In this document: in pieces, positions 21,664-38,502 of the stretch
Position numbering within the stretch: position 1 is the stretch's first letter
Layout: every line of letters begins with the position of its first letter
From: Dehalococcoidia bacterium
GTDB lineage: Bacteria; Chloroflexota; Dehalococcoidia; Lucifugimonadales; UBA2985
DNA length: 64,000 bases
Assembly: GCA_963580875.1 (NCBI GenBank)
Contig: CAUZMC010000002.1
Span: 6,865 to 70,864, forward strand
Direction of reading: 5' to 3'
Program-made: the position numbers and the translations under genes
The notes under the pieces: generated by a model
What the model was told of the DNA's origin: nothing
Database searches by the model: none
What the model saw: the letters and a program-made list of their open reading frames with translations, nothing else

Positions 21664-21784
21664 GGTATGATATTGTCCTTGACACTCAACGGTTCCTGGG
21701 CTTACCATCAAACGATGTTCCATTGTGTGGAGTATCAGAATATTATGGGCTAATTAGCCCGAACAGAAAGGAAGGTGAAGGACA

Positions 21785-23311: not shown

Positions 23312-23356
23312 GAAATCATTGGAAATTGCTCTTTTCAGTGGCGAATCTGTATTGTA

Positions 23357-24172
23357 GTGCTTTGTGCTAACCTGCTCAATGAGGGTCATCTGGGAGATGG
23401 TGATTTGCGGGTTTTGATGATTGGCGATGTGATCGGTAGACCTGGAAGAAGAGCCGTCGAGGCCTTGCTTCCAGGTCTACGCGATGAGTACAAAATAGAC
23501 CTTGTTGTGATAAACGGAGAGAATGCTGCCGCAGGTTTTGGTATTACTATAGAGACCGCTCAGGAATTGTTTGATAGCGGGGTTGACGTCATCACTTCTG
23601 GGAACCACATATGGGACCAGAAAGAGGTAATTCCCTATCTGGACACGGACGTGCCCATACTGCGGCCCTTGAACTATCCTCCTGCAACGCCAGGAAAAGG
23701 CTATGCCAGCGTGAATGGTGTCTTGGTAGTAAGCTTGATAGGCAGAGTGTTTGTTGGTAACTTCGACTGTCCTTTTCGTGCTATGGATGCACTGATAGAT
23801 GAATTTGGAGAAAGCCATCGGGTGATCATAGTAGACTTTCATGCTGAGGCCACTTCTGAGAAAGTGGCTTTGGGCTGGTACTTGGATGGCAGAGTAAGCG
23901 CAGTTGTTGGGACACATACACATGTGGGGACTGTGGATACGAGCATCTTAAATCAAGGTACGGCCTACGTTAGCGACCTAGGTATGGTAGGGCCGTCCCA
24001 TTCAGTGATAGGCAGCAATATAGAAGATGTTCTGGAGCGTTTCCTTAACCAAACTCCGCGTAGACTTACCGTCGCGAATGGGCCGGTCAAGTTTGGATCA
24101 GTAATGATTGATATAGATGAGAGTACCGGTAGAGCTACTCAGATTATTCGTGTGGATAGAGAGGTAAGGTAA
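23357..24172 (+). CDS. ymdB: YmdB-like metallophosphoesterase (2',3'-cyclic-nucleotide phosphodiesterase family)
   Basis: LRVLMIGDVIGRPGRRAV, VINGENAAAGFGIT, SGNHIWD, DFHAEATSEK, GTHTHV. The likely true start is the TTG at 23405, with GGAG upstream. The rny-ymdB order is conserved. Confidence 0.85.
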   Translation: MLCANLLNEGHLGDGDLRVLMIGDVIGRPGRRAVEALLPGLRDEYKIDLVVINGENAAAGFGITIETAQELFDSGVDVITSGNHIWDQKEVIPYLDTDVPILRPLNYPPATPGKGYASVNGVLVVSLIGRVFVGNFDCPFRAMDALIDEFGESHRVIIVDFHAEATSEKVALGWYLDGRVSAVVGTHTHVGTVDTSILNQGTAYVSDLGMVGPSHSVIGSNIEDVLERFLNQTPRRLTVANGPVKFGSVMIDIDESTGRATQIIRVDREVR

Positions 24173-24174
24173 TC

Positions 24175-25017
24175 ATGTCTCAAGTAGACCTCCATCTGCA
24201 TACCACATGTTCTGACGGTCGCTTGACTCCGGCGCAACTGATTGAGTTGGTGGCTGAAAGGGGTCTGCGCGTGGTGGCAATTACAGACCACGACTCTACA
24301 GAGGGACTTACTGCGGTTATGGAAGTGTCGAAGAAATTTCCACAACTTTCCATAATCCCAGGCATAGAACTAAGTACGGATATACCTGGTAATGAGATAC
24401 ACGTCCTCGGTTATTTCATACGTTACCACGACGCCAGTTTTCAGCAAACTCTGAGAGAGTTCAGGGACGGCAGGGTTGACCGGGCACGTGAGATGGTTGG
24501 CAAGCTGGCAGCATTGGGCCTGCCTGTGGACTGGGACAGAGTCCTTGAGTTGGCAGGTGGCGCTGTAGGACGCCCACACATTGCTCAAGCTATGGTAGAG
24601 AAGGGATATATTACCTATCCTCAAGAGGCATTTATTAAATATTTGGGACGTAACGGCCTTGCATATGCTGAAAGAGAAAAGTTGACTCCCTCGGAAGCGG
24701 TTAAGTTGATCGCTAGTGTGGGGGGGCTTCCAGTTCTGGCCCATCCTCGTGAGGTGGATAATGTGGAGCCGATGCTGCCGGAGTTGAAATCAGCTGGTCT
24801 GGTGGGTATGGAGGTTTACTATGGAACCTACAAACCGTCTGAGGTGAAGATCTTTGCGGCTATGGCCAAAAAGTACGGACTTATCCCCTGTGGTGGGAGC
24901 GACTATCATGCCCTGGGTACGCCTGAAGAGGTGGAGCCTGGGACAGTCGGACCGTCGATGGAGATTGCGGAAGAGCTCTATGCAATGGCTGGAAGCAAGA
25001 TTACTCTGAGCCAATGA
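24175..25017 (+). CDS. PHP-domain metal-dependent phosphoesterase (TrpH/YciV-like)
   Basis: VDLHLHTTCSDGRLTP..L......GLRVVAITDHDST.G, then HVLGYF, LAHP and GGSDYH. Confidence 0.85.
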   Translation: MSQVDLHLHTTCSDGRLTPAQLIELVAERGLRVVAITDHDSTEGLTAVMEVSKKFPQLSIIPGIELSTDIPGNEIHVLGYFIRYHDASFQQTLREFRDGRVDRAREMVGKLAALGLPVDWDRVLELAGGAVGRPHIAQAMVEKGYITYPQEAFIKYLGRNGLAYAEREKLTPSEAVKLIASVGGLPVLAHPREVDNVEPMLPELKSAGLVGMEVYYGTYKPSEVKIFAAMAKKYGLIPCGGSDYHALGTPEEVEPGTVGPSMEIAEELYAMAGSKITLSQ

Positions 25018-26530: not shown

Positions 26531-26560
26531 GAACGCAGTGCATATAATTGCACTGCGTTC
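26531..26560. terminator. perfect 12-bp-stem hairpin between convergent transcription units
   Basis: GAACGCAGTGCA-TATAAT-TGCACTGCGTTC, followed on the plus strand by GTTTGTGTGG. It lies 40 nt beyond the stop of the minus-strand CoA-transferase gene. Confidence 0.55.
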
Positions 26561-26599: not shown

Positions 26600-27856
26600 T
26601 TAGAGTGCCAAATTTTCAGACAGAGCGGTCAGTTCTGCTTGAGACAAGCCAAACTCGTCACAGAAAATCTCTTGGTTGTGCTCTCCAAGAAGAGGAGCGC
26701 GCCGGGTGATTTGCCATGGTGATTCGCTCCAGATGGCAGAAGTGCCGGGGTAGGTGAATGTCTCGTTCAGTTCAGGGTTGTCCACCTGTACCCAGAAGCC
26801 GCGGTCGTTCAACTGGCCATCGTCCAGCAGTTCATCGTGTGTACGGACTGCTCCCCAGGAAAACCCTAGTTCCTGAGCGCCGCGATATACCTCATCCCGT
26901 GTCATGTTGTTAATAAACTTACGTACTGTCAGGCTAATGTGGTCGGCCTCTTGCTGTATCGCAGACGTATCTTTGTACTTCTCGTCCATAAGGTCATCTG
27001 CCATGCCGTATTTGTCCATCCATTCGGCCAGTGAGCGGAGTTGGCTGGCTGGCAGCCTCATGGCTATGAGTTGGATGTTGATGTATTTGCCGTCCTTACA
27101 TAGTGTCTGTGTTGGCGGGGTTGGGGCGATGCCAGCATGACGTCCTGTCTGACGAATCATCGTTTTTCCAGTATATATCCACGCTGACATGGCGCCCTCA
27201 GTTGTAAGGGCACATGATTCGTGAATCGACACGTCTATGTACTGCCCTAAGCCTGCGTTAGCGCGGTGGATTAGGGCAGCTGTAATGGCCATGCAGGCGT
27301 AGTGGCTGCCCATGTGCCATGCCTGCCCACCACCTGGCGCGATGGGTGGCGCGTCAGGTATGTCGTCGTACCCGCAAGAGCCCATTTGACCTCCTGCAGC
27401 CAAGTGCAGGAGGTCACTGGTCTCAAAATCACGCCATGGCCCCGTTTGCCCGAAGGGTGTCAGTGAACACAGAATAACGCTGGGGTTCAGTTTCTTCATA
27501 TCGTTATATCCGAGTCCCAGCGATGCAAGATACCCTGGCCGGAATGTTTCAAGCACAACGTCTGCCGTGGCTATCATGCGACGGAATAATGCTCTGCCGT
27601 CCTCTGTTTCTAGGTTTAGTGTCACACTTCGCTTTGATGTGTTGTAGTGCCAGAAGCTTAGGCTCCGTTCTGGGTTGTCAACGTCTTTATAAAATGGTCC
27701 TACAGTGCGGGCGTTCTCTCCGTCAGGTGGCTCTATCTTGATTACGTCCGCTCCAAGATCACCGAGCAATTTGCCGCACCATTGGCCCTTCTCGTCTGCA
27801 AGCTCCAGTACACGGATTCCGTTGAATGGGCCACTCGCCGTATTCTGTGTAGTCAT
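26600..27856 (-). CDS. family III CoA-transferase (CaiB/BaiF/Frc family), subunit or paralog B
   Basis: 418 aa. The N-terminal family signature is GIRVLELADEKGQWCGKLLGDLGADVIKIEPPDG. Its start overlaps the upstream paralog's stop (ATGA at 27853-27856). Confidence 0.88.
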   Translation of the reverse strand: MTTQNTASGPFNGIRVLELADEKGQWCGKLLGDLGADVIKIEPPDGENARTVGPFYKDVDNPERSLSFWHYNTSKRSVTLNLETEDGRALFRRMIATADVVLETFRPGYLASLGLGYNDMKKLNPSVILCSLTPFGQTGPWRDFETSDLLHLAAGGQMGSCGYDDIPDAPPIAPGGGQAWHMGSHYACMAITAALIHRANAGLGQYIDVSIHESCALTTEGAMSAWIYTGKTMIRQTGRHAGIAPTPPTQTLCKDGKYINIQLIAMRLPASQLRSLAEWMDKYGMADDLMDEKYKDTSAIQQEADHISLTVRKFINNMTRDEVYRGAQELGFSWGAVRTHDELLDDGQLNDRGFWVQVDNPELNETFTYPGTSAIWSESPWQITRRAPLLGEHNQEIFCDEFGLSQAELTALSENLAL

Positions 27857-29211
27857 CGTATTAGCTCCTCCTGGTAGGGATAGAGGTCCATATCCTTGGG
27901 CCAGAACGTATCGTCCTCGTATCCGGAGGACAATTCTTCTTGGCTCATTCCCAGAAGCCCCATCAAAATTTCACGGTTGTCCTGTCCGATAAGCGGCCCG
28001 TGGCGATGGTTAACAGCGGGTGTTTCAGAGAGTTTGAATGGGGCGTTTTGCAACCGCCAAGAACCAAGGACTGGGTGCTCAACTTCCTGATACATGCCAC
28101 GTTCACGTAATTGAGGGTCATGTTCAGCACGGTCTTCATTGCTCTGGACTGGCATTGCCCTTACACCATTCGTCTGACATTGTTCAGTAAGTTCATATTT
28201 CTCAAGGGTCAGTGACCAGGTCTCTATCCCATTGTCCAGTTCCTCTTGGTGCTCTAGCCTACCTTCGACTGTGTTGAATTTTACGTCTAGAGCCCAAGCA
28301 GGGCTTCCCATGAGGCCTACAAGATTGAGCCATTCTTGCTCTGAGAAGCAGGCGATGGTGCACCAGTCGTTGTAGCCGCCACCCTTTGTTCGATAACTAT
28401 TGTGAGGAGCTACCGTCTGCCCGCGGTAGTTACTCAGATGTGGTGTCCCCGGCCAGTGCGCACGGTTGCCAGAGGGGTAGCCATCACGCTGGGATTTGCG
28501 GCCATTTATGGTCATGTCTAACAGAGCAGGTCCGTTGAGTGTGGCTCCCATGATCATCTGCCCCATGTCAACGTGCTGACCCTGGCCTGTCATTTTACGG
28601 TGGAATATTGCGGCCATAGTGTAGAAAGCGATGTACATGCCGCCGGTATCGTCAAGGTAAGACCAGCCCCAGCCCGCTGGCGGTTGATTTGGCAGGCCGG
28701 AGGCAAATGTCATTCCTGAGAGGGCCTGGGCCGAAGGGCCGAACGTGGTGTAGTGCTTGTCCCTCCCAGTATGCCCAAACCCAGACATGGAAACGTAGAC
28801 TATATTTGGAGACAGTTTCTTGAGTTCCTCGTATCCCAGCCCCCAACTTTTCAGTACATTAGCGCTGTAGTTTTCCACAACAACGTCAGACTCAGAGATG
28901 AGTTTTTTGATGATCTCTATGCCGCGTGGGCTGCGAACATTCAGTGAAAGGCTCAACTTGTTGGCATTTGTATCGTTGAAGTGGCCAGATGTGTTGAGGC
29001 TCGGTTGAATGCCTGGAGGAGTGTTGGCCGGCCCTCCCGCTCTTCCGAATTCACGCAGAGGCCACTCTACTTTGATAACCTCTGCACCAAGCGCACCTAA
29101 CCATCGAGTGGCCCATGGTCCTGCCCGTACCCATGTGAAATCCACAACTCGAATTCCTGATAGGGCCTTGGGTACAGCACTCTCAGTTACCGGTGTCATA
29201 GTTTTCTCCAA
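27853..29211 (-). CDS. family III CoA-transferase (CaiB/BaiF/Frc family), subunit or paralog A
   Basis: 452 aa. The N-terminal signature is LSGIRVVDFTWVRAGPWATRWLGALGAEVIKVEWP. It is translationally coupled to the next CoA-transferase gene. Confidence 0.88.
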   Translation of the reverse strand: MEKTMTPVTESAVPKALSGIRVVDFTWVRAGPWATRWLGALGAEVIKVEWPLREFGRAGGPANTPPGIQPSLNTSGHFNDTNANKLSLSLNVRSPRGIEIIKKLISESDVVVENYSANVLKSWGLGYEELKKLSPNIVYVSMSGFGHTGRDKHYTTFGPSAQALSGMTFASGLPNQPPAGWGWSYLDDTGGMYIAFYTMAAIFHRKMTGQGQHVDMGQMIMGATLNGPALLDMTINGRKSQRDGYPSGNRAHWPGTPHLSNYRGQTVAPHNSYRTKGGGYNDWCTIACFSEQEWLNLVGLMGSPAWALDVKFNTVEGRLEHQEELDNGIETWSLTLEKYELTEQCQTNGVRAMPVQSNEDRAEHDPQLRERGMYQEVEHPVLGSWRLQNAPFKLSETPAVNHRHGPLIGQDNREILMGLLGMSQEELSSGYEDDTFWPKDMDLYPYQEELIR

Positions 29212-29320
29212 TCTGGCTTAGAATAACAAAGTTCATGAAACAGATAACACGGACTGGTTTTCTTGATCAGGTCGTGCGAATACTCAAGGTTGAGCAATAG
29301 AGTGTCCGCACGTCATACAT

Positions 29321-30643
29321 TTAGTCTGGAGTTGCGCTCCACACTGTGAAGTTGCCACCCATTGGCATGGGACCTCCGGAGATACCTATCTCAGGTTTCA
29401 CACCTGTTACTGCTCTTGCACCAGCGCGTCCTTGTAACTGTTGAATGCAGTCTGTGTGCATCCAGAAACGGCTACGGCCACTGCCGACGTTGCCGCCGCT
29501 GGGAGAGATAGGATTCGGGCCTTCAGGGCTGATATCCGTCTGGTAAAAGTCTAACGCTTCGCCGAACTTGATGCCGCGGAATCCTAGGCCCTCTAGGTGG
29601 AATTGGTGGAATAGGGCAAAGCCATCATACATATTTTCAAATGAGAGGTCGTTTACGGTTATCCCTGCACCTTCAAACAGCTTCCTTCCTGTACTGGCCG
29701 TCTCATCCTGTATCTCATCCAGGGTTGGGGTGAGACTTCTAGCCCTGCCTCTGCTGGACGCATGGTTGAGGATGTAGACTGGCTTCTGCTTCATGTCTTT
29801 GGCAAGTTCAGCGGTCGTGAAGAGGTAGGCTCCGGCAACCATTATTGGTATGTCGTTGTCGTAGAGATTTGCAGGCTTGGCAACCCATCTGGCGCTTACG
29901 TAGTCCTCACGTGTCATTTCTTCAGGACGATGCTGGTACCAGAATCCCTCAGGAAAATTGAGGCCGTTCTTTTTCCATTGGATCATCGCTGGTGCCATCA
30001 TGTCGTGGGTTTTGCCATACCTGCGGCAGTACTCAGCAAATTGAAGGGCCGTTCCGTATGACGCTGGGGTGCCCCAGAGGCCAGAGATTGCTCTAGTACC
30101 AGGGATGGAATCCTGAGAGTTCTCTCCTCCCTGGTAGTACCGACCTGAATAATTGTGCCACCCTTTCAGCACTAAACAATTGCTTGTAAGGCCGTCGCCA
30201 ACAGCCTGTGCGGCAACGACGACGGCATTCGACATACACCCAGGACCGTACATTGTGAACTTGACGTTCTTCAGTTCCGGCATGTTCTTGATTATCCATT
30301 CGGCACTCAACTTCGCGATACCATCCAAGGGGTCATCTGTGGGATTGAAGTGATTGACGACGTCTTGTGGTATTGGATCGCCAGCCGGCCAAGGGGCTCC
30401 GGTTGTGGTCGTTGAGTCCATAACAAGGCCGTCGATCTTGTCAGGAGAGACTCCGGCGTCCTCTATGGCCTTGCGGAGAGCGTCGATAGCTAAAGCGCCG
30501 ACGGAGGTCTCAGCTTTGCCGTCCCATCGCCTAGCTGTCGGTGAGTGTCCCACGCCAACCGCTGCTACCTTGCCTCGGTGTTCCCAAATACCCAATTCTT
30601 CTCTGGCCCTGTATATGGAATCTGGAGCGTTCTGTGTTGTCAT
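29321..30643 (-). CDS. thiolase-like protein (SCP-x / lipid-transfer-protein-type thiolase superfamily)
   Basis: 440 aa. Thiolase-fold blocks are present (IDGLV.., GPGCMSNAVVVAAQAV as the candidate nucleophile-Cys loop, C-terminal G..GSG...W...D.IQQLQGRAG.R.V). It is paired with an upstream DUF35 gene, as is typical for this subfamily. Confidence 0.8.
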   Translation of the reverse strand: MTTQNAPDSIYRAREELGIWEHRGKVAAVGVGHSPTARRWDGKAETSVGALAIDALRKAIEDAGVSPDKIDGLVMDSTTTTGAPWPAGDPIPQDVVNHFNPTDDPLDGIAKLSAEWIIKNMPELKNVKFTMYGPGCMSNAVVVAAQAVGDGLTSNCLVLKGWHNYSGRYYQGGENSQDSIPGTRAISGLWGTPASYGTALQFAEYCRRYGKTHDMMAPAMIQWKKNGLNFPEGFWYQHRPEEMTREDYVSARWVAKPANLYDNDIPIMVAGAYLFTTAELAKDMKQKPVYILNHASSRGRARSLTPTLDEIQDETASTGRKLFEGAGITVNDLSFENMYDGFALFHQFHLEGLGFRGIKFGEALDFYQTDISPEGPNPISPSGGNVGSGRSRFWMHTDCIQQLQGRAGARAVTGVKPEIGISGGPMPMGGNFTVWSATPD

Positions 30644-30693
30644 TGTTCACGCCTTTCTGTGAGCTTCTGTCACACCCGTAAACATATATGAGG

Positions 30694-31134
30694 TTAGCCT
30701 GTGACTCTCCATTCGGGGACTTTTTGGCCGCTTGGAGTAGACTCAAATATTACCTCTACTGTGGCTCCAATGGGGACATTGTCCACCGGGGTTCCTGGAA
30801 GGTGGGAATACATTTGTATGCCCTGATCTTCATCCAACATGACCACTGCCACGTTGAAGGGCTGATCATCTTGGAGTAGTCTGATTGGGCAGTCGTAAAC
30901 CACTCCGTAGTTGTATATCTTGCCACGCCCACTCATCTGCTTCCATTCCAGGTTGTTTCCTGAGTTGCATTTGTCACATGCTTGCCGTGGTGGATGTATT
31001 AGCCTATTGCAGGCGGTGCAGTTCTGGATGACTAAGCGTTCCTCGTTAGCGGCGTTCCAAAAGTACTTAGTCAACTCATCGGGTACTGGAGATTGTTTAG
31101 GCAAATTTCGCCTCCATTCCAGATTTGTAATCAC
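30694..31134 (-). CDS. DUF35 protein (rubredoxin-like Zn ribbon plus OB-fold, acyl-CoA-associated)
   Basis: 146 aa. A four-Cys ribbon is CTACNRLIHPPRQACDKCNS, followed by an OB-fold block (GRGKIYNYGVVY...FNVAVVMLDE..GIQMYSHL). Confidence 0.82.
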   Translation of the reverse strand: MITNLEWRRNLPKQSPVPDELTKYFWNAANEERLVIQNCTACNRLIHPPRQACDKCNSGNNLEWKQMSGRGKIYNYGVVYDCPIRLLQDDQPFNVAVVMLDEDQGIQMYSHLPGTPVDNVPIGATVEVIFESTPSGQKVPEWRVTG

Positions 31135-31325
31135 CGGGAGAATAATTTAAAGCGGAAAGATAGTCAAGTCGTACTTCGTCAGTGTACTGTGCATGTCCAG
31201 TAGTGTTGTTATCTATGAGTGCGATGTGTGGCTGTGTTGTGAAATCATACACGCTAAATTGAGACGAATTCCTGCATTACCAATAGAGCATTGGAACAGT
31301 TTTTTAAGAGAGGGCAATAAAGCCC

Positions 31326-32573
31326 CTATAATTTCCTGATTTTAGGGAAGAAGGCGAACGCTCCTACTGAAAGAATAATGAGGCCAGTAGCATGTGCCAG
31401 CAGCGCCATACTGACACCGAAGGCAGAGGCCAACGCCCCTATTTGGAGATGGCCCACAGGGCCAAGGCCAACAGCTAGTACCCAAGAGCCCATTGCACGG
31501 CCACGTAATTCATCAGGCACCACGGTCTGGACCAGACTTTGAGATAGAATATCAGATAATGCTCCCATTCCATTTATGACTATTATGGCCAGAATGGCAA
31601 AGTAGAAGGTATTTGCTATGCCAAGGAATAGTAGTGATATGCCGAAAATATGTAATGCCACCAAATACAACAGTCCCTTTCGACGCACCTCTCCAAGAGA
31701 TGACAGTGCCAGTATGGCTACAATACCGCCTACGGAACGCAAGGCGTTCATAAGACCAAGGCCTTCAGCACCAACTTCAAGTACGTCCCTGGCTAAGACT
31801 GGTAGGAGTACTTGGTGAGAGAAGCCAAGTATCTCCACTGATGAGGACAATATTAGCAGTATCCGTAAGGTTTCGTTTTGCCGTATCTCCTTACCAAGCT
31901 CCTTCAGGTTCTGCCAGAGCGGCTGTTGGGCGCTTGATGTAGATTGACCGTGAGAGTGAGTGAAGTTGATAGCCGTTGCTGACCCTATGTAGCTGGCAGT
32001 CAGGACCGCATAAGCCACATCTGCCCCAAAACGTCCTAGCAGGAAGCCTACTGCCAAGGAACCACAAATGCCTCCAACTCTCATGCCCAAAGAGAGATAT
32101 GATAGGCTATTAACAAGGTTGTTTGCCCCAACTATATCGTAGGCAAAGCTCTGTCGTGCAGGCTGGTGCATGGCTCTAAGGCATCCGCCTGCAAAAGTAA
32201 TCAGCATCAGATGCCATAGAGCCATTATGTCCAGCATGATGATTAGACCGATGGCGACGCTGAGAGCAGCCATGCTGATGCTGACCAAACGAAGGAGTTT
32301 GCGACGGTCTACCCTATCGGCTACGGCTCCCGCAATCACCCCCAGTAGGAGAAAAGGAACCATTCTCAGTGCAAGAGTCGCACCGACCATCAGTGTTGAG
32401 TCTGTCAGTTCCAGTACCAGCCATCCAAGGACAACCTGCTCACCTATGAAACCAGTTGAGTTGAATATTCCAGCTATCCATAGGAGGCGAAAGTCTCGGA
32501 AACGCATTGCAGGGGTTGCAAGGAGATTGCGGAGCAGGGAGCGACTTTGGAGATTCAATTCATTTTCTGGCAA
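31326..32573 (-). CDS. MFS transporter, paralog 3 of 3 (MFS_3 / EntS-like type)
   Basis: 415 aa with about 12 hydrophobic helices. N-terminal family pattern is FRDFRLLWIAGIFNSTGFIGEQVVLGWLVLELTDS and the loop motif is AGAVADRVDRRK. Confidence 0.85.
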   Translation of the reverse strand: MPENELNLQSRSLLRNLLATPAMRFRDFRLLWIAGIFNSTGFIGEQVVLGWLVLELTDSTLMVGATLALRMVPFLLLGVIAGAVADRVDRRKLLRLVSISMAALSVAIGLIIMLDIMALWHLMLITFAGGCLRAMHQPARQSFAYDIVGANNLVNSLSYLSLGMRVGGICGSLAVGFLLGRFGADVAYAVLTASYIGSATAINFTHSHGQSTSSAQQPLWQNLKELGKEIRQNETLRILLILSSSVEILGFSHQVLLPVLARDVLEVGAEGLGLMNALRSVGGIVAILALSSLGEVRRKGLLYLVALHIFGISLLFLGIANTFYFAILAIIVINGMGALSDILSQSLVQTVVPDELRGRAMGSWVLAVGLGPVGHLQIGALASAFGVSMALLAHATGLIILSVGAFAFFPKIRKL

Positions 32574-32716
32574 TTGTGCTCTTTCCTATATACATCGCAT
32601 GTGCAGACCAGCATCTACAGCGAATCGTATCCCAGTATCCAGCGATTGTAGAGGAATGTGGCATTGGTTAAAGCGAAGCCCTAGCCAATGCCGTGGGAAA
32701 CGTTATACTTGGAGTT

Positions 32717-34033
32717 CTACTCGATACGACGTAAAGCCGGATAGAAGAGGTACATGATTGCAGCGATTACGACTAGGCCAATGCCGAATAGTATTTGCGC
32801 CACCTGTACACCCAACGCGGCAGCGGCCATTCCAGCGACGAATCCACCGAAGGCGGTCATGGCTCTATCCAGGCTGAGAACACCCATCATACGACCCCGC
32901 ATGTTATCCGGTGCCGCCTGAATGATGACTGTATTGATAATTGGCATGAAGATAGACTGCCCAGCTCCTATTGCAATTATTAGAACAACCGCCAACGTGA
33001 GTGAGTTGAGATAAGTGCCAACTGAGAAGCATATAAGAAGGATTCCAAAAATTGCCATCATAGCTAGTGCTAAGATGCCACGTTTTTTGGTTGGATTCAA
33101 AGTAGCCAAGGTCAGGCCTCCCACGAGACTTCCTATCCCCATAACGGAGATAAGTAAGCCGAAACCTGTTGCCCCTATGTCTAGGACACGAGTCGCGAAG
33201 AGAGGAGCAAAGACCTGCATGAAAGCCATTCCGAATGTGAAGTAGCCAAGTGATATTATCAGTACTCCTCGAATTGCGGGAGCGTTCCAGGCGTATTTGA
33301 ATCCCTGACCCAAGTCGACACCCATATTACGGATTCCCTGATAGCCGGATCGCTTGTGGTCAGGTACTTGAAGCATCACCGTGACTATAACAGCGATTAT
33401 GTAGACTGGGACGATAAATAGGAATGGCGCCGCCAGACCAAAGACTCCCATGAGGATTCCGGCTAAAGATGCTCCAACGATGCGCATTGCGCCCATGGTT
33501 GTGGTGCTGAGAGCCATTGCATTGGTTACTAGATGGGGTGGCACTAACGCTGGAATCATTGCTCTGCGGGCAGGCTGATCGAAGGCCATAAACCCTCCCC
33601 TGAGGAAACTGAAAGCGTAGATGTGCCATATTTCTATCAAGTTAGTTACGACTAGCAAGGCAAAGATAGTATTCAGTCCCAGGACTAGGAATTTGACCAC
33701 GACAAGCACCGTACGTCGATTGAAATTATCCGCTACTACACCTGCTATCATGCCTAGGAACAGTCCTGGTATAGTTCTGACCAGTATGACTGCTCCTAGA
33801 TGAACGGCAGAATCTGTCAAGGCTAAAATTAGAAGAGGACGGGCCGTCTGCTCTAGCCACAGAGCAAAGGCGTGTGTCATCTGTCCTATCCAGAGAAGTG
33901 TAAAGTTCCTGTATCTCAGAGAAGCGAAAGTATTCTTTATTGAAACGCGGTGTTCGTTGCCTTGCCCGTGCTCCATGTTTTCTTGTGGTTTTCGTTCCAT
34001 GTTTTTTATAAATCTACTTGGATTTAGGTTCAC
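32717..34033 (-). CDS. MFS transporter, paralog 2 of 3 (MFS_3 / EntS-like type)
   Basis: 438 aa. Pattern YRNFTLLWIGQMTHAFALWLEQTARPLLILALTDS and the loop AGVVADNFNRRT are present. It lies 9 nt downstream of paralog 1. Confidence 0.85.
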   Translation of the reverse strand: MNLNPSRFIKNMERKPQENMEHGQGNEHRVSIKNTFASLRYRNFTLLWIGQMTHAFALWLEQTARPLLILALTDSAVHLGAVILVRTIPGLFLGMIAGVVADNFNRRTVLVVVKFLVLGLNTIFALLVVTNLIEIWHIYAFSFLRGGFMAFDQPARRAMIPALVPPHLVTNAMALSTTTMGAMRIVGASLAGILMGVFGLAAPFLFIVPVYIIAVIVTVMLQVPDHKRSGYQGIRNMGVDLGQGFKYAWNAPAIRGVLIISLGYFTFGMAFMQVFAPLFATRVLDIGATGFGLLISVMGIGSLVGGLTLATLNPTKKRGILALAMMAIFGILLICFSVGTYLNSLTLAVVLIIAIGAGQSIFMPIINTVIIQAAPDNMRGRMMGVLSLDRAMTAFGGFVAGMAAAALGVQVAQILFGIGLVVIAAIMYLFYPALRRIE

Positions 34034-34042
34034 AGATAGTAA

Positions 34043-35419
34043 TTAATCCAGCCTCCTCATTCTAGGCATAAAGACCAGCATGAAGATAGAGAAGACTATA
34101 AGAATGATGGCCAGTCCGCCTACGGCCCATTGCACTCCGATTATGTCCGTTAGTACGCCGGCGGCAAATACCGCAAAGCTGGTCAGACCGAACTCCATCA
34201 TCATGAGACTTGAGACTCTGCCACGGTATTCGTCATCTACGTAGTATTGCAACAGGGTATTACCAAGCGTCATTCGAGCCGTCTGACCGATTCCGACGAA
34301 GAAGATGAATCCCATGGCCATTGGCCAGGCAATATTACTAGGAAACCATGAACTGGAGAAGAACAGTCCCACTAGGGCAATGCCGAGGATTAGGCTTCCC
34401 ACTATGAACATAAGGCCGCGTTTCTTGTCTGGTAATGAGGCTAGGAAGATGGCCCCGAGCATAGCACCCAGCCCAGATGTGCTAAGCAACAGTCCGAATC
34501 CTCTTGAGTCAACCTTGAGAATATCCTCTGTCAGCGCGGGAAGTAGCATCATGTATGGCATGGAGAGGAGGGTCACCACGAATGTAACAAGTAGGACAGT
34601 GATTAGAATTGGCTGATTTCTGACATACTTGAGCCCGTCGATAGCGTCCCTCATGGCACCGCGCCCGCTCAGGCTTATGGTTCCTGTTTCTGGCATCAAG
34701 GAGATGAAGACGACGGCCATAACGTACATGCCTGTCATGACGAAGTAGACAGCTTCGAAGCCAAACAGGTAGATGATGAACCCCACGGGTATCGGAGCCA
34801 GAAGTCGCATTGCACTCATCCCGAAAGTGTTGAGGGCTACGGCGTTCATAAGTTGGTCCTGTTCCACGATCTCGGCGATCATGGCCTGGCGGGATGGCAT
34901 CATAAGACCCATTATGGTCCCTTGGATCAGGGCGGCTACTACTAGGATAATCCAGGAGCCTGAACGCTCCTCGCTCAAAAGCCCGAATACCAAGATAAGG
35001 CCAATGCCCAGAGAAACAAGGGCAGATCCCGCCTGACCTGCCCAGAGTATGTATTTCTTTTGAATCCTGTCTGCCATGACGCCACCGTAGAGAGAGAAGA
35101 AGAGCATTGGCAAAGCGTTCCCCAGCGCCATGACGCCAAGGGCCGTGCCGGACCCGGTCAATTCAAATACCAACAGGGATCTGGCAATCATCTGCATGTT
35201 CATGGCGGCCATCTGACCTATCATGGCACCGTAGTAGAGTCTGAACACGGGGTTTTTTAGAGATGTGAATGTCCTCAGGTTACGTAAGGATATGGAATGT
35301 CCGCCGCCACGGCCGCCCATTCTCATTTGCCTAGTGACGTTGTTAGATGCGTTTTCAGACTTAGCATTGTCGTTTGCTTCTGTCTCTTTAATATTTTGGT
35401 CTTGAATTGGTTGACGCAC
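34043..35419 (-). CDS. MFS transporter, paralog 1 of 3 (MFS_3 / EntS-like type)
   Basis: 458 aa. Pattern NPVFRLYYGAMIGQMAAMNMQMIARSLLVFELTGS and the loop GGVMADRIQKK are present. A polar N-terminal extension of about 45 aa precedes these. Confidence 0.85.
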   Translation of the reverse strand: MRQPIQDQNIKETEANDNAKSENASNNVTRQMRMGGRGGGHSISLRNLRTFTSLKNPVFRLYYGAMIGQMAAMNMQMIARSLLVFELTGSGTALGVMALGNALPMLFFSLYGGVMADRIQKKYILWAGQAGSALVSLGIGLILVFGLLSEERSGSWIILVVAALIQGTIMGLMMPSRQAMIAEIVEQDQLMNAVALNTFGMSAMRLLAPIPVGFIIYLFGFEAVYFVMTGMYVMAVVFISLMPETGTISLSGRGAMRDAIDGLKYVRNQPILITVLLVTFVVTLLSMPYMMLLPALTEDILKVDSRGFGLLLSTSGLGAMLGAIFLASLPDKKRGLMFIVGSLILGIALVGLFFSSSWFPSNIAWPMAMGFIFFVGIGQTARMTLGNTLLQYYVDDEYRGRVSSLMMMEFGLTSFAVFAAGVLTDIIGVQWAVGGLAIILIVFSIFMLVFMPRMRRLD

Positions 35420-35513
35420 TAGTTACTCCTAGCATTGATATATAGCTCGTATATTTTAAACAGCGTATTTATAATGATTGGTTTTGTAATCTGCAGTCAG
35501 CGACTAAAGGAGC

Positions 35514-36047
35514 TTACTTCATAGATTTGATTCCGTGTTCCGCTTTGTGAGTGGCGCTGAGAACCAATTGCATGGCTTCACTCACTTTTCCCAGTTCAAG
35601 CTGAGACAGTGCGGCTAGTCGATCCTCCCACCGTGAGCGCCGCGCCGCAATGAGTCCATTCCCCAGCACATTTCCATGATTCGTTAGGCTGCACAGCACA
35701 GAGCGGCGGTCATCCGGATCCGTCCAGCGATTCACGAGTTCCTTTTCCACCAATCGGTCTACTAGGCCTGTTGCCCTTGACATGGAAATATCCAGATTAG
35801 AGGCCACATCACTCATACGCAGTGATGTCTCTTGAAGCAGAAGGAAGACCACCCTGACCTGCGGCATACTTAAATCCAGAGTGAACCACTCTGGAGACAC
35901 CACGCGTGGTAGAGAGTGGGTCACTTCATCCAGGATATTTACGACTTGGGTCAGCAGATAGCCCCTGGATTGTTGAGCGTCAGGCGAGGCCGATTTAGAT
36001 TTTTGCAACATTTCATAATACCTGTATATTTCAAATAACTGTAACAA
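35514..36047 (-). CDS. MarR-family transcriptional regulator
   Basis: Winged-HTH pattern LSMPQVRVVFLLLQETSLRMSDVASNLDISMSRATGLVDRLVEKELVNRWTDPDDRRSVLCSLTNHG. The start is uncertain (TTG at 36047 or ATG at 36011). Confidence 0.85.
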   Translation of the reverse strand: MLQLFEIYRYYEMLQKSKSASPDAQQSRGYLLTQVVNILDEVTHSLPRVVSPEWFTLDLSMPQVRVVFLLLQETSLRMSDVASNLDISMSRATGLVDRLVEKELVNRWTDPDDRRSVLCSLTNHGNVLGNGLIAARRSRWEDRLAALSQLELGKVSEAMQLVLSATHKAEHGIKSMK

Positions 36048-36050
36048 TTA

Positions 36051-36079
36051 TATATTGTCAGTAAATTAAGGTCAATATA
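36051..36079. promoter_or_regulatory. imperfect inverted repeat in the divergent MarR / Mo-enzyme intergenic region (candidate operator)
   Basis: TATATTGTC-N11-GTCAATATA, with 8 of 9 arm positions complementary. The surrounding DNA is AT-rich, so a chance occurrence is plausible. Confidence 0.2.
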
Positions 36080-36189: not shown

Positions 36190-38502
36190 ATGCTGGATTA
36201 TAAGCCAAACATTGTGTTGTCTAATAAGGAATTTAAAGTTGTAGGCACGAGGCCCATACGCCATGATGGATGGGACAAGGTGACGGGTCGTGCTAGGTAT
36301 GCCAATGACGTTGCCATGGCTGGCATGCTCTACGGGAAAATTCTGCGCAGTCCTCATGCCCATGCCATAATCAAAAAGATTGATTATAGCAAGGCTCTCA
36401 AATTGCCTGGTGTTCAGGCAGTGGTAACGGCCGAAGATATGCCGAACCTTTCTGCCAGACTGGTGGATCAGGAAGAGGGCGCAATGGCCAACACCGGATT
36501 TCGCAGTCGTAATGTCATGGCAAGAGAAAAGGCTCTTTATATTGGACATGCAATAGCGGCGGTGGCTGCTACAAGTCAGCACATTGCCGAAGAGGCTTTA
36601 GCACTTATAGATGTTGAGTACGAGGTGTTGACTCCGGTAATAACACCTGCCGCAGCCATGAAGGAAGATGCCCCTATTATTCATGAATTGTTGATCGCAA
36701 AGTCGAGCGCAAGTGGGCCTGGTGGATTGGGCGATGAACCAGCGGAGAAAGGCACCAATGTTGCCAATCGCTTCGAGTTTCGGCTTGGTGATACAGACGA
36801 AGGATTTAAAGAAGCCGACATTATAGTGGAGCGTGAGTTTCACACCAAGCGTGTACATCAAGGATACATAGAGCCACATGCAGCTACTGGAATGTGGGGC
36901 ATGGATGGATATGTGACCATATGGACGAGCACTCAGCAATTGTTTGGCGTGCGTGAGGACTGCGCAACGTTACTGGGATTGCCAACGTCAGGAGTAAAGA
37001 TCATACCAATGGAGATCGGCGGCGGCTTTGGAGCTAAGGGGACAAGCTACTTGCCAGCGGTGGTCGCTTTACTTTCCAAGAAAAGTGGCAAGCCGGTTAA
37101 GATTGCCATGAGTCGGACCGAGGTGTTCATGGCGACCGGCCCAACTTCCAGTGCTGACATCAAGGTCAAAATGGGAGTTAACAAAGATGGTCGGATAACC
37201 GCTGCAGAGGCACACTTGATTTACGAGGCAGGAGCTTTCCCAGGTTCATCTGTAGGTGGTGGAGCACGCTGTATGTTTACTCCCTACAACATACCTAACG
37301 GTTACATTGAGGCCTTTGATGTGTTATGTAACACTCCAAAAGTGGCTGCGTACCGTGCTCCTGGCGCTCCAATGGCCTCATTTGCAGTTGAGCAGGTCGT
37401 GGATGAGTTGAGCCAGAAACTCTCAATGGATCCTCTAGAGTTCCGTATGCTCAATGCGGCCAGTGAGGGGACACGACAGATTACAGGCCCACTGATAGGC
37501 AATGTTGGTCATATGGAGACCTTGGAAGCTACCAGAGCTCACCCACACTACTCAGCGCCGTTGGGAGGGCCCAACAGAGGTCGCGGTATAGCATCAGGCT
37601 TTTGGGGTAACGGCTCCGGTCCTGCAAGTGCCATAGCAAGTGTGAATGCGGACGGCAGCATAAGCCTTATAGAGGGTGCACCGGATGTTGGTGGAAGTAG
37701 AGCTGCAATGGCCATGCAAGTAGCTGAGGCGTTGGGAATAGCTTCTGAGGATATTAGACCTTCCATTGGAGACACGGACTCAATCGGTTTCAGTACAGGT
37801 GCGGGAGGAAGCGGCGTAACTCAGAAAGTTGGAGCCGCCTGCTATCTAGCCGCTCAGGATGTTAAACAGCAGATGGTGGTGCGGGCTGCCAAAATCTGGG
37901 ATATCCCCGCTGACGAAGTTGAGTATGAGGATGGCGTAATCAAAAGCAAGACGGACTCTGAATTGAAAATAACTTTCAAGGATTTGTCTGCTAAGCTGAA
38001 TGCAACCGGTGGCCCTGTCACAGGACGTGCCAACCTCAACCCTGGAGGAGCTGGGGCTGCCTTCGCTCTCAATATAGTAGACGTTGAAGTGGACCCAGAG
38101 ACTGGCAAAGTAACCATTCTTCGGTTCACGGCGATTCAGGACGTTGGTAAGGCCATTCACCCAAGTTATGTGGAAGGTCAGATCCAGGGTGCCTCGGTCC
38201 AGGGGATTGGATGGGCATTGAACGAGGAGTACTTCTATAACGACAATGGTCAGATGATGAATGCCAGCTTCCTTGACTATCGTATGCCGATAAGCTTGGA
38301 CTTGCCTATGATAGACACAGTGCTTGTGGAAGTTGCCAACCCCGGGCATCCATACGGTGTCCGTGGCGTCGGTGAGGTCTCTCTTGTTCCCGTGATGGGG
38401 GCAATTGCCAACGCAATTCAAAATGCCACGGGCGTTAGAATGACTAGCATGCCAATGTCCCCAGGACGTATAATGAAAGAGATAGACGAGGCAAGCAAAT
38501 AG
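36190..38502 (+). CDS. molybdopterin-binding large subunit of a xanthine dehydrogenase / aldehyde oxidase-family molybdenum hydroxylase
   Basis: 770 aa with GGAGGG upstream. The a/b-hammerhead N-terminus is VGTRPIRHDGWDKVTGRARYANDV..MLYGKILRSPHAHA.I..ID. Mo-cofactor blocks are GGGFGAK, AAYRAPGAPMASFAVEQVVDEL and GVGEVSLVPVMGAIANAI. It lacks the CODH-type VAYRCSFR/AYRGAGR loop. Confidence 0.9.
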   Translation: MLDYKPNIVLSNKEFKVVGTRPIRHDGWDKVTGRARYANDVAMAGMLYGKILRSPHAHAIIKKIDYSKALKLPGVQAVVTAEDMPNLSARLVDQEEGAMANTGFRSRNVMAREKALYIGHAIAAVAATSQHIAEEALALIDVEYEVLTPVITPAAAMKEDAPIIHELLIAKSSASGPGGLGDEPAEKGTNVANRFEFRLGDTDEGFKEADIIVEREFHTKRVHQGYIEPHAATGMWGMDGYVTIWTSTQQLFGVREDCATLLGLPTSGVKIIPMEIGGGFGAKGTSYLPAVVALLSKKSGKPVKIAMSRTEVFMATGPTSSADIKVKMGVNKDGRITAAEAHLIYEAGAFPGSSVGGGARCMFTPYNIPNGYIEAFDVLCNTPKVAAYRAPGAPMASFAVEQVVDELSQKLSMDPLEFRMLNAASEGTRQITGPLIGNVGHMETLEATRAHPHYSAPLGGPNRGRGIASGFWGNGSGPASAIASVNADGSISLIEGAPDVGGSRAAMAMQVAEALGIASEDIRPSIGDTDSIGFSTGAGGSGVTQKVGAACYLAAQDVKQQMVVRAAKIWDIPADEVEYEDGVIKSKTDSELKITFKDLSAKLNATGGPVTGRANLNPGGAGAAFALNIVDVEVDPETGKVTILRFTAIQDVGKAIHPSYVEGQIQGASVQGIGWALNEEYFYNDNGQMMNASFLDYRMPISLDLPMIDTVLVEVANPGHPYGVRGVGEVSLVPVMGAIANAIQNATGVRMTSMPMSPGRIMKEIDEASK

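Follow-up and report, generated by a model that had tools for sequence, protein, structure and literature searches.

A marine Chloroflexota gene cluster juxtaposes three separately inherited units and may combine BbsEF-type CoA activation with non-thiolytic C–C bond cleavage

The eight-gene cluster on the minus strand of the window (the whole 64,000-nucleotide stretch of DNA analyzed here) is a juxtaposition of three separately inherited units rather than one fixed operon: a MarR-family regulator heading three major facilitator (MFS) genes, a DUF35/thiolase-fold pair (DUF35-Thl), and a pair of family III CoA-transferases (F and E). Our preferred explanation, to which we give an even chance, is that in this three-unit juxtaposition F/E CoA-activates an organic acid, upon which DUF35/Thl performs a non-thiolytic C–C cleavage. 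If true, this would represent an uncharted, though not unprecedented, ocean carbon metabolism. At the gene level, an earlier sequence-only reading proved accurate: an ORF check returned all eight co-oriented genes (36047 to 26600) at the coordinates it had given, along with the short spacing of the first two MFS genes, the ATGA stop/start overlap of the CoA-transferases, the hairpin closing the cluster, and the motifs shared by the MFS translations (F-R/T-L-L/Y-W/Y, L-T-D/G-S, and A-D-R/N-x-x-R/K-R/K). From MarR onward, intergenic gaps measure 94, 9, 143, 191, 50, 109, and −4 nt (Table 1).

Table 1 Features of the cluster and their positions in the window
Feature	Position	Strand	Remarks
Imperfect palindrome, candidate MarR operator	36051-36079	-	inverted repeat, 14-nt arms, 79% complementary; putative function
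Sigma-70-like promoter TTGACC-17-TATAAT	36075-36047	-	11/12 consensus matches, best in region; putative function, from consensus match alone
MarR-family winged-helix regulator	35514..36047	-	PF01047, 1.5e-12; 177 aa as listed
MFS1, EntS/DHA3-like major facilitator	34043..35419	-	458 aa; PF07690, PF05977
MFS2, EntS/DHA3-like major facilitator	32717..34033	-	438 aa; PF05977 + PF07690; 9 nt after MFS1
MFS3, EntS/DHA3-like major facilitator	31326..32573	-	415 aa; PF05977 + PF07690
Weak promoter-like site TTGACT-17-TATTCT	31139..31167	-	9/12 matches; ends 4 nt before DUF35 GTG
DUF35 protein, stand-alone, C4 zinc ribbon + OB fold	30694..31134	-	146 aa; PF12172 + PF01796; GTG start
Thiolase-fold protein (Thl), non-thiolase active site	29321..30643	-	440 aa; PF22691
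F, BbsF-like family III CoA-transferase, catalytic subunit	27853..29211	-	452 aa as listed; PF02515
E, BbsE-like family III CoA-transferase paralog	26600..27856	-	418 aa; PF02515
Hairpin, perfect 12-bp stem	26531..26560	.	40 nt past E stop; dG -23.4 kcal/mol, z = -6.0

The modular inheritance is visible within the genus. One congener (G001) carries MFS1-3 and F-E with a clean 1683-bp deletion of DUF35-Thl, while a second (G002) encodes the MFS array at one locus, DUF35-Thl at another, and nothing orthologous to F/E. MFS1 orthologs share 90% (G001) and 78% (G002) identity with the window copy, MFS2 orthologs were found in both congeners, and DNA homology to G002:C13 stops at 31342, just past MFS3. 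The MarR and three-MFS array is specific to the genus, F/E orthologs stand alone in other genera, and the full eight-gene order is repeated in no sampled genome. Hence the single compact conserved module proposed earlier gives way to three independently conserved units, and the possibility raised with it, that no relative would retain synteny, was half borne out: the units are conserved individually, the eight-gene order is not. Since the MFS genes and F/E remained intact in G001 after the loss of DUF35-Thl, F/E is not strictly dependent on that partner copy, a point we counted against our preferred explanation.

The two CoA-transferases form a paralogous, heteromeric pair of the BbsEF type. 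The best match of F is 9fn0_B (2e-66, next best 7e-45) and that of E is 9fn0_A (7e-60, next best 3e-50), with far weaker cross-matches to the opposite chains (1e-19 and 9.5e-29), so that these reciprocal best matches lie ~10–20 orders of magnitude over the next family. Together with 9fol and 9fun, 9fn0 represents the succinyl-CoA:(R)-benzylsuccinate CoA-transferase BbsEF; some close F homologs are likewise named “BbsF subunit” by JGI. The alignment position of the formyl-CoA transferase (Frc) catalytic residue Asp169 is occupied by D187 (28651-28653) in F and by W180 (27317-27319) in E. Across 40 homologs of each, F has Asp in 39, whereas E has Trp in 25 and never Asp, mirroring the Asp of 9fn0_B and Tyr of 9fn0_A. 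The catalytic Asp, whose absence from the transferases would have spoken against the earlier reading, is thus present where BbsEF has it, in the F-type subunit; judged by these residues, E is a degenerate, non-catalytic structural partner. The F/E junction reads CGATGACT, with ATGA at 27853-27856, and this junction is kept together with a GGAG-type Shine-Dalgarno in 6/6 F/E ortholog pairs inspected across three genera: F and E are translationally coupled. For F itself, an ATG four codons downstream of the listed TTG and behind GGAG is the more likely start.

Physical pairing of F and E is further supported by single-chain F-E fusion ORFs of 885–897 aa, four of which (C5, C6, C9, C29) are encoded by this genome and many more by relatives. 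As in PtmU4, these paralogs are one polypeptide with two CoA_transf_3 domains, one of them catalytic, although the Asp-bearing domain is N-terminal in the genome’s fusions and C-terminal in PtmU4, and the window F and E are separate genes. BbsEF resembles the window pair in its two adjacent subunits but differs in several respects: identity of F/E to BbsF/BbsE is well under the 60–93% seen among the family’s own members, no bss or other bbs genes lie alongside, the host lineages comprise marine Chloroflexota along with other heterotrophs of aerobic type, and the F/E family also occurs in the fused form. Other heteromeric family III relatives are the phthalate transferase SptAB and the Chloroflexus malate transferase SmtAB.

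The DUF35 protein has a canonical zinc ribbon (C39-x2-C42-x10-C53-x2-C56) and is the partner subunit of Thl, its gene lying directly upstream of Thl in 80/80 related loci. The Thl active site departs from that of thiolases: C136 occupies the nucleophile position, but Y339-D-G341-F replaces HDCF and G387-S-G-R390 replaces GHP. Of the Cys/His/Cys triad that the sequence-only reading had singled out for inspection, the nucleophile-position Cys is therefore retained, and both catalytic His and the acid/base Cys are gone. Among 114 Thl homologs, Y339, G341, R390, and R392 are invariant and C136 is kept in 110. The closest relatives with known structures are Ltp2-ChsH2(DUF35) and Sal-Shy(DUF35) (6ok1, 9myr; PMC12329534), which head the sequence and fold matches of both subunits. 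Fold searches with Thl placed 6ok1 (Ltp2 aldolase), 4u4e, 7yvy, and 9myr (Sal aldolase) on top, sequence identity to the two aldolases being about 20%, and the DUF35 protein matched ChsH2(DUF35) of the Ltp2 aldolase (1e-13), an archaeal DUF35 (2e-11), and the Shy DUF35 (1e-10) in the PDB.

In both retro-aldolases, catalytic residue roles have been described for the YDHF (Ltp2) and YDCY (Sal) motifs, and the catalytic base is the YDxF Tyr (PMC12329534). Thl shares this conserved Tyr, the loss of the GHP His, and a zinc-ribbon DUF35 partner, and by these residues looks like an aldol-type C–C bond splitter. It differs in the third motif residue (Gly vs. His in Ltp2 and Cys in Sal), in Arg390 at the position of the Ltp2 acid Tyr344 and Sal Gln352, and at the nucleophile position (Cys vs. 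Ala in Ltp2 and Gly in Sal). That this active site differs from both the YDHF + Tyr344 combination of Ltp2 and the YDCY motif of Sal was counted against the preferred explanation, and the retained C136 could instead support covalent acyl-enzyme chemistry. In addition, DUF35 here is stand-alone rather than forming the C-terminal domain of a MaoC hydratase, and no hydratase gene lies near DUF35-Thl.

The resemblance of F/E to BbsEF suggests another route, in which a BbsAB-type thiolase cleaves a 3-oxoacyl-(succinyl)-CoA and the succinyl-CoA is reused by F/E on a substituted succinate, the oxidising steps being encoded elsewhere. BbsF and BbsE are the closest relatives of F/E among solved structures, and BbsAB (benzoylsuccinyl-CoA thiolase, 7pxp) combines, as here, a small DUF35 subunit and a large SCP2-type thiolase-fold subunit encoded beside a BbsEF-type transferase; the widely kept Cys at the nucleophile position and weak NCBIfam matches to the BbsA and BbsB models also fit. 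However, those matches fall far short of the model cut-offs (21 bits vs. 250 for BbsA, 32 vs. 750 for BbsB), BbsB ranks 15th by fold and 5th by sequence, far behind the aldolases, and BbsA was not among the PDB matches of the DUF35 query. A Bbs-like thiolase is not supported for Thl: the His and Cys of HDxF and the His of GHP are missing, their replacements being invariant, whereas BbsB keeps HDAF and GHP. Neither bbsCD nor bbsG- or bbsH-like genes occur within the cluster, which is indeed free of dehydrogenase and hydratase genes as first described, and the hosts are lineages of aerobic-type marine heterotrophs. We consider this route quite improbable; of the two activities named earlier for DUF35/Thl, the retro-aldol-type lyase is favored by the residues and the Ltp2/Sal matches, and the BbsAB-like thiolase is not.

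A condensing or acyl-transferring DUF35/Thl (a PhlABC-like C-acyltransferase, or a thiolase/HMGCS-type scaffold), or a non-catalytic scaffold, with F/E supplying or recycling acyl-CoA, appears even more remote. DUF35 proteins do serve as scaffolds, both in PhlABC and in the archaeal complex of thiolase with HMG-CoA synthase (PMC12329534). The Thl fold matches include PhlC as well as archaeal thiolase, and C136 could carry an acyl group. Yet 0/80 cassettes adjoin a KAS III/PhlA-like or HMG-CoA synthase gene, the only constant cassette neighbors across these loci are DUF35 and a mini-HAD, and the HDAF and GHP that archaeal thiolase retains are absent from Thl. Moreover, Thl paralogs have expanded in catabolic islands alongside monooxygenases, SDRs, acyl-CoA dehydrogenases, and amidases, a setting indicative of degradation.

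Beyond this cluster, DUF35-Thl and F/E-type genes are statistically linked. Of 30 complete genomes, 8 have an F-like gene (E ≤ 1e-90) inside the 21-kb Thl locus, vs. 0.36 expected (P = 5e-9), and counting the linkage as four independent arrangements alone still yields P = 5e-4. Overall, F/E-type genes are enriched ~20-fold near the Thl family in complete genomes, in at least four arrangements and two phyla. A co-oriented DUF35-Thl-(HAD)-F-E order is seen at six SAR202/Dehalococcoidia loci and an F-E...DUF35-Thl-Thl order at five Gammaproteobacteria loci. The Thl tree implies nine gains or losses, at least seven of them forced by supported branches, indicating that linkage changed repeatedly.

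This recurrence has to be weighed against the lack of any functional coupling, i.e., chance neighbors in which a MarR-MFS efflux operon, DUF35-Thl, and F/E serve different pathways. The 1.31-Mb genome of this marine Chloroflexota host is crowded with paralogs (6 F/E pairs, 5 Thl, and ~10 related MFS genes), and separate inheritance of the units, the 109–191 nt gaps between them, and the promoter-like site ahead of DUF35 are all compatible with independence. So are the Thl orthologs closest to the window copy (G002, G012, G016, G009), which are unlinked to F/E; these we counted against the preferred explanation, as we did the ~70% of Thl loci without an F/E-type transferase within 10 kb and the absence from the window of the mini-HAD, the usual third cassette gene (76/80 loci). 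Chance, however, does not sit well with the enrichment and the repeated changes on the Thl tree, nor with the MFS genes that again adjoin a CoA-transferase or DUF35 at loci C5, C29, and C53/C56 of the same genome, nor with internal gaps that contain no terminator-like site on the coding strand, along which the genes could be co-transcribed. On balance, we regard chance neighborhood as unlikely.

Under the preferred explanation of activation followed by cleavage, F/E would take CoA from a donor thioester and load it onto a carboxylic acid, in the simplest case a β-hydroxy or dicarboxylic acid; by analogy alone with BbsEF, SptAB, and SmtAB, the donor would be succinyl-CoA. DUF35/Thl would then split a C–C bond of the CoA ester in a retro-aldol-like, non-thiolytic manner, yielding a carbonyl product plus a short acyl-CoA. 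Such a route would carry no ATP cost and require no dehydrogenase or hydratase step.

The MarR-MFS unit would carry an organic anion or toxic intermediate across the membrane. Transport direction is not readable from MFS sequence; to our knowledge, characterised members of the EntS/DHA3-like family are exporters, so that the import initially proposed is unsupported and family precedent would favor export. With mutual identities of just 26–30% (MFS2 vs. MFS1 30%, vs. MFS3 28%), MFS1-3 are ancient paralogs, not recent duplicates. MarR-controlled MFS efflux operons with EntS/DHA3 carriers (TIGR00900 and PRK10489 models) are a known system, likewise with MarR heading co-oriented 12-TM-type MFS genes and a promoter overlapped by a palindrome. 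Here, by contrast, three to four diverged carriers stand in tandem, and all their scores, including the TIGR00900 and EntS-like matches of MFS1, are under curated equivalog cut-offs; named MarR equivalogs also matched the regulator weakly.

The sigma-70-like promoter and the overlapping palindrome (36047..36079) lie within a 142-bp divergent region with a Mo-hydroxylase gene on the other side, and MarR probably represses the MFS array at this palindrome over its own strong promoter. Because the listed TTG start (36047) is overlapped by the −10 box, translation of MarR probably begins instead at codon 13, an in-frame ATG at 36011, giving 165 aa. The weaker site upstream of DUF35 lies inside the G002 homology block (window 29322-31179), with its hexamers also present in G001, and may serve the DUF35-Thl cassette as a promoter of its own, from which the transcript could be leaderless. 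At the other end of the cluster, the hairpin has no adjacent U-tract and is thus no canonical intrinsic terminator; it may act as a bidirectional transcript end or stabiliser.

Both the ORF listing and the family scans recovered eight co-oriented minus-strand genes in the window, one for a winged-helix MarR regulator, three for MFS carriers, one for a DUF35 protein, one for a thiolase-fold protein (Thl), and two for family III CoA-transferase subunits, F (BbsF-like) and E (BbsE-like). The sequence-only reading had described these as a single MarR-headed cluster, closed by a hairpin and devoted to import, CoA activation, and C–C cleavage: its observations held, and this interpretation was borne out in part. 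From MarR to E, the intergenic gaps are 94, 9, 143, 191, 50, 109, and −4 nt, and an ATGA is indeed common to the stop of F and the start of E. The 12-bp hairpin is also real (26531–26560, dG −23.4, z = −6), yet with the U-tract absent it is ruled out as a canonical terminator. The TTG start listed for MarR overlaps the −10 box of TTGACC-17-TATAAT (11/12), the best promoter-like site of the region, which is a consensus match only, as promoter and terminator calls here are consensus matches occurring at background frequency; the in-frame ATG at 36011 is likelier to be the true start. For F, translation probably starts at an ATG with GGAG upstream, four codons 3′ of the listed TTG. A plus-strand ORF (32170–32757) that encodes an Arg-rich product and runs opposite the MFS genes was judged spurious. 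In an NCBIfam search, none of the eight cluster proteins reached an equivalog. The assembly (1.31 Mb, 96% complete) has SAR202/Dehalococcoidia-type marine Chloroflexota as its relatives.

Genes of the minus-strand cluster, and fused transferase paralogs in the same genome
Feature	Position	Strand	Source or location
MarR regulator	35514-36047	-	ORF listing, family scan
MFS carrier (MFS1)	34043-35419	-	ORF listing, family scan
MFS carrier (MFS2)	32717-34033	-	ORF listing, family scan
MFS carrier (MFS3)	31326-32573	-	ORF listing, family scan
DUF35 protein	30694-31134	-	ORF listing, family scan
Thiolase-fold protein (Thl)	29321-30643	-	ORF listing, family scan
Family III CoA-transferase (F)	27853-29211	-	ORF listing, family scan
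Family III CoA-transferase (E)	26600-27856	-	ORF listing, family scan
F-E fusion ORF	C5:24567-27248		own genome, outside window
F-E fusion ORF	C6:37099-39792		own genome, outside window
F-E fusion ORF	C9:29642-32299		own genome, outside window
F-E fusion ORF	C29:11755-14436		own genome, outside window

We evaluated the active site of Thl through a profile of 18 paralogs searched against the PDB and an alignment of 114 homologs. From the Cys/His/Cys triad of thiolases, Thl retains a Cys at the nucleophile position, with both the His and the acid/base Cys missing: C136 aligns with the nucleophile of the CxS motif (Cys in 110/114 homologs), Y339-D340-G341-F342 replaces the HDCF of SCP2 thiolases and the HDAF of BbsB (from the benzoylsuccinyl-CoA thiolase BbsAB) and an archaeal thiolase, and G387-S-G389-R390 lacks the His of the GHP that BbsB and the Pyrococcus thiolase show in the same alignment. 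With both the HDCF/HDAF motif and the GHP histidine missing, the comparison with an SCP2- or BbsB-type thiolase did not hold. The replacement motif is itself strongly conserved, Y339 and G341 being found in all 114 homologs, D340 in 113, and Phe or Tyr at residue 342 in 102 and 12, respectively; R390 and R392 are likewise invariant. The top sequence and fold matches, the latter obtained with an AlphaFold model as query (pLDDT 78.5, pTM 0.84), were the Ltp2-ChsH2(DUF35) aldolase, a Sphaerobacter “putative thiolase”, the Pyrococcus thiolase, and the Sal-Shy(DUF35) aldolase, with BbsB at rank 15 in the fold search. The best PDB match of the DUF35 protein was ChsH2(DUF35), and BbsA was not detected in that search.

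Ltp2 and Sal act with their DUF35 partners as retro-aldolases on steroid side chains. In Ltp2, the base is Tyr294 of YDHF and the acid Tyr344, and in Sal the catalytic residues are Tyr302 and Cys304 of YDCY, with the Cys as catalytic acid (PMC12329534). Y339 aligns with Ltp2 Tyr294 at the first YDxx position, i.e., the base in Ltp2. However, the third motif residue is Gly341 instead of the His of Ltp2 (oxyanion hole) or the Cys of Sal, and the second-acid position, following GG-x-x-G-x-G, holds Arg390 instead of Ltp2 Tyr344 or Sal Gln352, in a short, low-pLDDT stretch of alignment whose register is uncertain. A DUF35 gene lies next to Thl in 80/80 loci, and its product may bind the thiolase-fold dimer as a zinc-ribbon partner; here it is a stand-alone protein and not a hydratase domain. 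Thl shares only the Tyr with Ltp2 and Sal, and by its residue pattern it therefore falls outside the thiolases and outside both aldolase classes, as another active-site variant of this group.

The two transferase subunits both match PF02515 (CoA-transferase family III), scoring 310 and 279 bits (cut-off 23.3). We placed them by E-value ranking against all PDB chains, and took subunit roles from the resulting alignments. F best matched chain B of the benzylsuccinate CoA-transferase BbsEF (9fn0_B, 2e-66), followed by YfdW (7e-45), with 9fn0_A at 1e-19; E best matched 9fn0_A (7e-60), followed by a match at 3e-50, with 9fn0_B at 9.5e-29. The two subunits are 26% identical and each is closest to a different Bbs chain, with far weaker cross-matches, which indicates that the E/F split is older than the divergence of this family from Bbs. 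The catalytic residue was located by counting along the alignment with formyl-CoA transferase (Frc), whose Asp169 lies in the GDSNSGMH loop; this count ruled out a catalytic Asp near the “AQA” helix. At the Asp169 position F carries D187, like 9fn0_B, and E carries W180, at a site occupied by Asp in YfdE, SUGCT, and 4ed9 and by Tyr in 9fn0_A. Across 40 homologs per subunit, Asp was present in 39 F-type sequences and in none of the E-type sequences, 25 of which have Trp. Because F keeps this Asp and E never has it, the pair would consist of one catalytic and one degenerate subunit. The resemblance to BbsEF thus lies in two different, adjacent family III subunits with the catalytic Asp in the F-type one, but the bbs/bss operon context (bbsCD, bbsG, bbsH) is absent around F/E, and family scans of the cluster and its flanks detected neither an SDR pair nor genes for an acyl-CoA dehydrogenase or an enoyl-CoA hydratase.

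Elsewhere in the same genome, four F/E paralogs (60–66% identity) are single 885–897-aa F–E fusions with two CoA_transf_3 domains, the N-terminal F-like domain bearing the Asp and the E-like domain a Trp. A more distant two-domain protein of 819 aa is encoded at C23:12895-15354. Type III transferases with two domains have been described before, DddD and PtmU4 being characterised examples (PMC6006322; PMC5395668). In relatives, most F/E paralogs are fused, and the orthogroup of the window (77–93% identity, three genera) is always split, with the ATGA junction kept throughout. Taken together, the fused paralogs, the always-split orthogroup, and the constant junction support a physical association of F and E.

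We then considered how often DUF35-Thl and F/E occur together, using the neighborhoods of 80 Thl homologs from GTDB genomes. After DUF35 and a mini-HAD-like gene, an F/E-type transferase was the next most frequent neighbor (~23/80 loci), in the order DUF35-Thl-(HAD)-F-E at six Chloroflexota loci and F-E...DUF35-Thl-Thl at five gammaproteobacterial ones. Among 30 complete genomes, eight had an F-like gene within the 21-kb Thl locus against 0.36 expected (P = 5e-9, phylogeny being only partly corrected for), and the linkage still reached P = 5e-4 when only four independent arrangements were counted. Mapped on the Thl tree, F/E linkage must have been gained or lost 9 times, and supported branches force at least 7 of these changes. 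This combination of enrichment and repeatedly changing linkage is the main argument for a shared F/E and DUF35-Thl pathway. A Mo-hydroxylase large subunit is encoded beside MarR (36190–38502), and homologs with 58–63% identity occur near DUF35-Thl in 11/80 loci, often with an OFA-type MFS gene (L064, L072, L080, L090, L091, L104, L119-L122). Its enrichment was weak, with close homologs in the Thl locus of 3/30 complete genomes against ~0.7 expected (an estimate from 139 homologs), and we kept it as a lead, not as a member of the module. One gammaproteobacterial locus searched for substrate clues (L109) encodes a transposase, a DUF169 protein, and a dienelactone hydrolase, and nothing more of use.

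Within the genus, the eight-gene order is not maintained. In the relative G001, MFS1-MFS2-MFS3 is followed directly by F-E, and DUF35-Thl has been lost by a clean 1683-bp deletion (window 29353–31035; L038 = G001:C50, 3123-3227) that left the first ~33 DUF35 codons fused to the last ~10 Thl codons, whereas the MFS and F/E genes on either side are intact and share 85% DNA identity with the window. In a second relative, G002, the MFS array, with an extra paralog, is followed by unrelated DNA, the DUF35-Thl ortholog (83% and 94% amino acid identity) lies at another locus where homology to the window is confined to 29322–31179, and an F/E ortholog was not found. Other genera have F/E orthologs without DUF35, Thl, or these MFS genes. 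This separate inheritance indicates that the cluster is a young juxtaposition of three units, namely MarR with the MFS array, DUF35-Thl, and F-E.

The import role proposed for the carriers was not supported. MFS1-3 score 138, 132, and 107 bits on PF05977 (cut-off 27) and match the NCBIfam equivalogs EntS and TIGR00900 below their cut-offs. Characterised members of these families are exporters, which would make export the likelier direction here by family resemblance. Mutual identities of 26–30% rule out a recent triplication. A fourth MFS paralog lies between MFS1 and MFS2 in G002 (L123 = G002:C13, 692-2038), G001 has a 74-residue remnant of one (L038 6143-6361), and the window has none, so that the array appears to gain and lose members. 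Upstream, an imperfect palindrome with 14-nt arms (36051–36079) overlaps the MarR promoter and is a candidate operator.

Building on the observed residue patterns and gene linkage, we infer the following reaction steps. F/E would move CoA from a thioester donor to a carboxylic acid; BbsEF and other heteromeric family III enzymes suggest, by analogy, that this donor may be succinyl-CoA. In the second step, the DUF35/thiolase-fold enzyme would split a C–C bond without thiolysis, in the simplest case through the retro-aldol cleavage of a beta-hydroxyacyl-CoA, a route that would account for a module that does not need dehydrogenase or hydratase genes. This logic has a precedent in Chloroflexus, with its succinyl-CoA:malate CoA-transferase and malyl-CoA lyase. 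At a paralogous locus on C5, a co-oriented MFS gene and F–E fusion (C5:24567-28670) adjoin genes (21684–24548) for a 547-aa ThDP-dependent enzyme and a 375-aa FMN-dependent alpha-hydroxy-acid dehydrogenase. Such neighbors hint that this transferase family acts on hydroxy or oxo acids.

SAR202-type Chloroflexota abound in the dark ocean, and their expanded enzyme families are proposed to serve the oxidation of recalcitrant dissolved organic matter (PMC5395668). Two such expansions lack a characterised member, i.e., the single-active-site BbsEF-like CoA-transferases and the DUF35/thiolase-fold cassette with its new active-site pattern, and the 6 transferase pairs and 5 cassettes of this 1.3-Mb genome make up a notable share of its coding capacity. 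If the residue patterns are read correctly, the database label “thiolase” is wrong for Thl, which looks like a non-thiolytic lyase, and only one transferase subunit is catalytic; with the two families linked far above chance, this provides concrete, testable enzyme pairs with which the substrates of this metabolism could be sought. Every part falls in a known superfamily, and no new principle is revealed. A more far-reaching scenario, which as a whole we consider rather unlikely, is that the YDGF/Cys136/Arg390 proteins and their stand-alone DUF35 form a third mechanistic class of acyl-CoA C–C lyases and, with split or fused single-active-site BbsEF-type transferases, an ATP-free “activate-and-split” cycle that processes beta-hydroxy or dicarboxylic acids of marine dissolved organic matter, in which the acyl-CoA product re-donates CoA and the MFS array expels the non-metabolisable carbonyl or acid fragment.

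The Thl family is tight, with only 75 representatives reaching 1e-30 in a library clustered at 50% identity, few of them full length. Thl is 72–80% identical across Chloroflexota, Entotheonella (Tectimicrobiota), Binatia, and Gammaproteobacteria (loci L043-L122), an unusually high cross-phylum identity that suggests strong constraint, horizontal spread, or both. YDGF thiolase-fold proteins reach up to 13 copies in 2-Mb genomes. A “type B” paralog (41–43% identity) has Asn or Ala at the nucleophile position and keeps YDGF and GxGRxR (L047, L048, L028, and L005, the last on C39 of the window's genome); in Entotheonella (L047, L048) types A and B are tandem genes, and either one has a separate DUF35. 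Four tandem DUF35-Thl cassettes within ~13 kb adjoin a reverse-order (E-F) two-domain CoA-transferase in two other genomes (L026, L027; G017, G014). The mini-HAD-like gene (~117–123 aa, FDIDGTL...GDREDLD) lies directly downstream of Thl in 76/80 loci (L043-L122) and is absent from the window, its only copy in this genome (C39:6403-6732) being next to the Thl paralog with 41% identity. It could be assigned to no curated family, with no NCBIfam match and only sub-threshold Pfam matches to DUF7124 and Hydrolase_3. Six contigs of the same assembly (C28, C29, C39, C42, C53, C56) end inside DUF35 or Thl paralogs, indicating that this multi-copy cassette fragments the assembly. Two of these may represent one locus with the MFS-DUF35-Thl order of the window, since C53 carries an MFS gene and the N-terminal part of DUF35, and C56 the C-terminal part and Thl.
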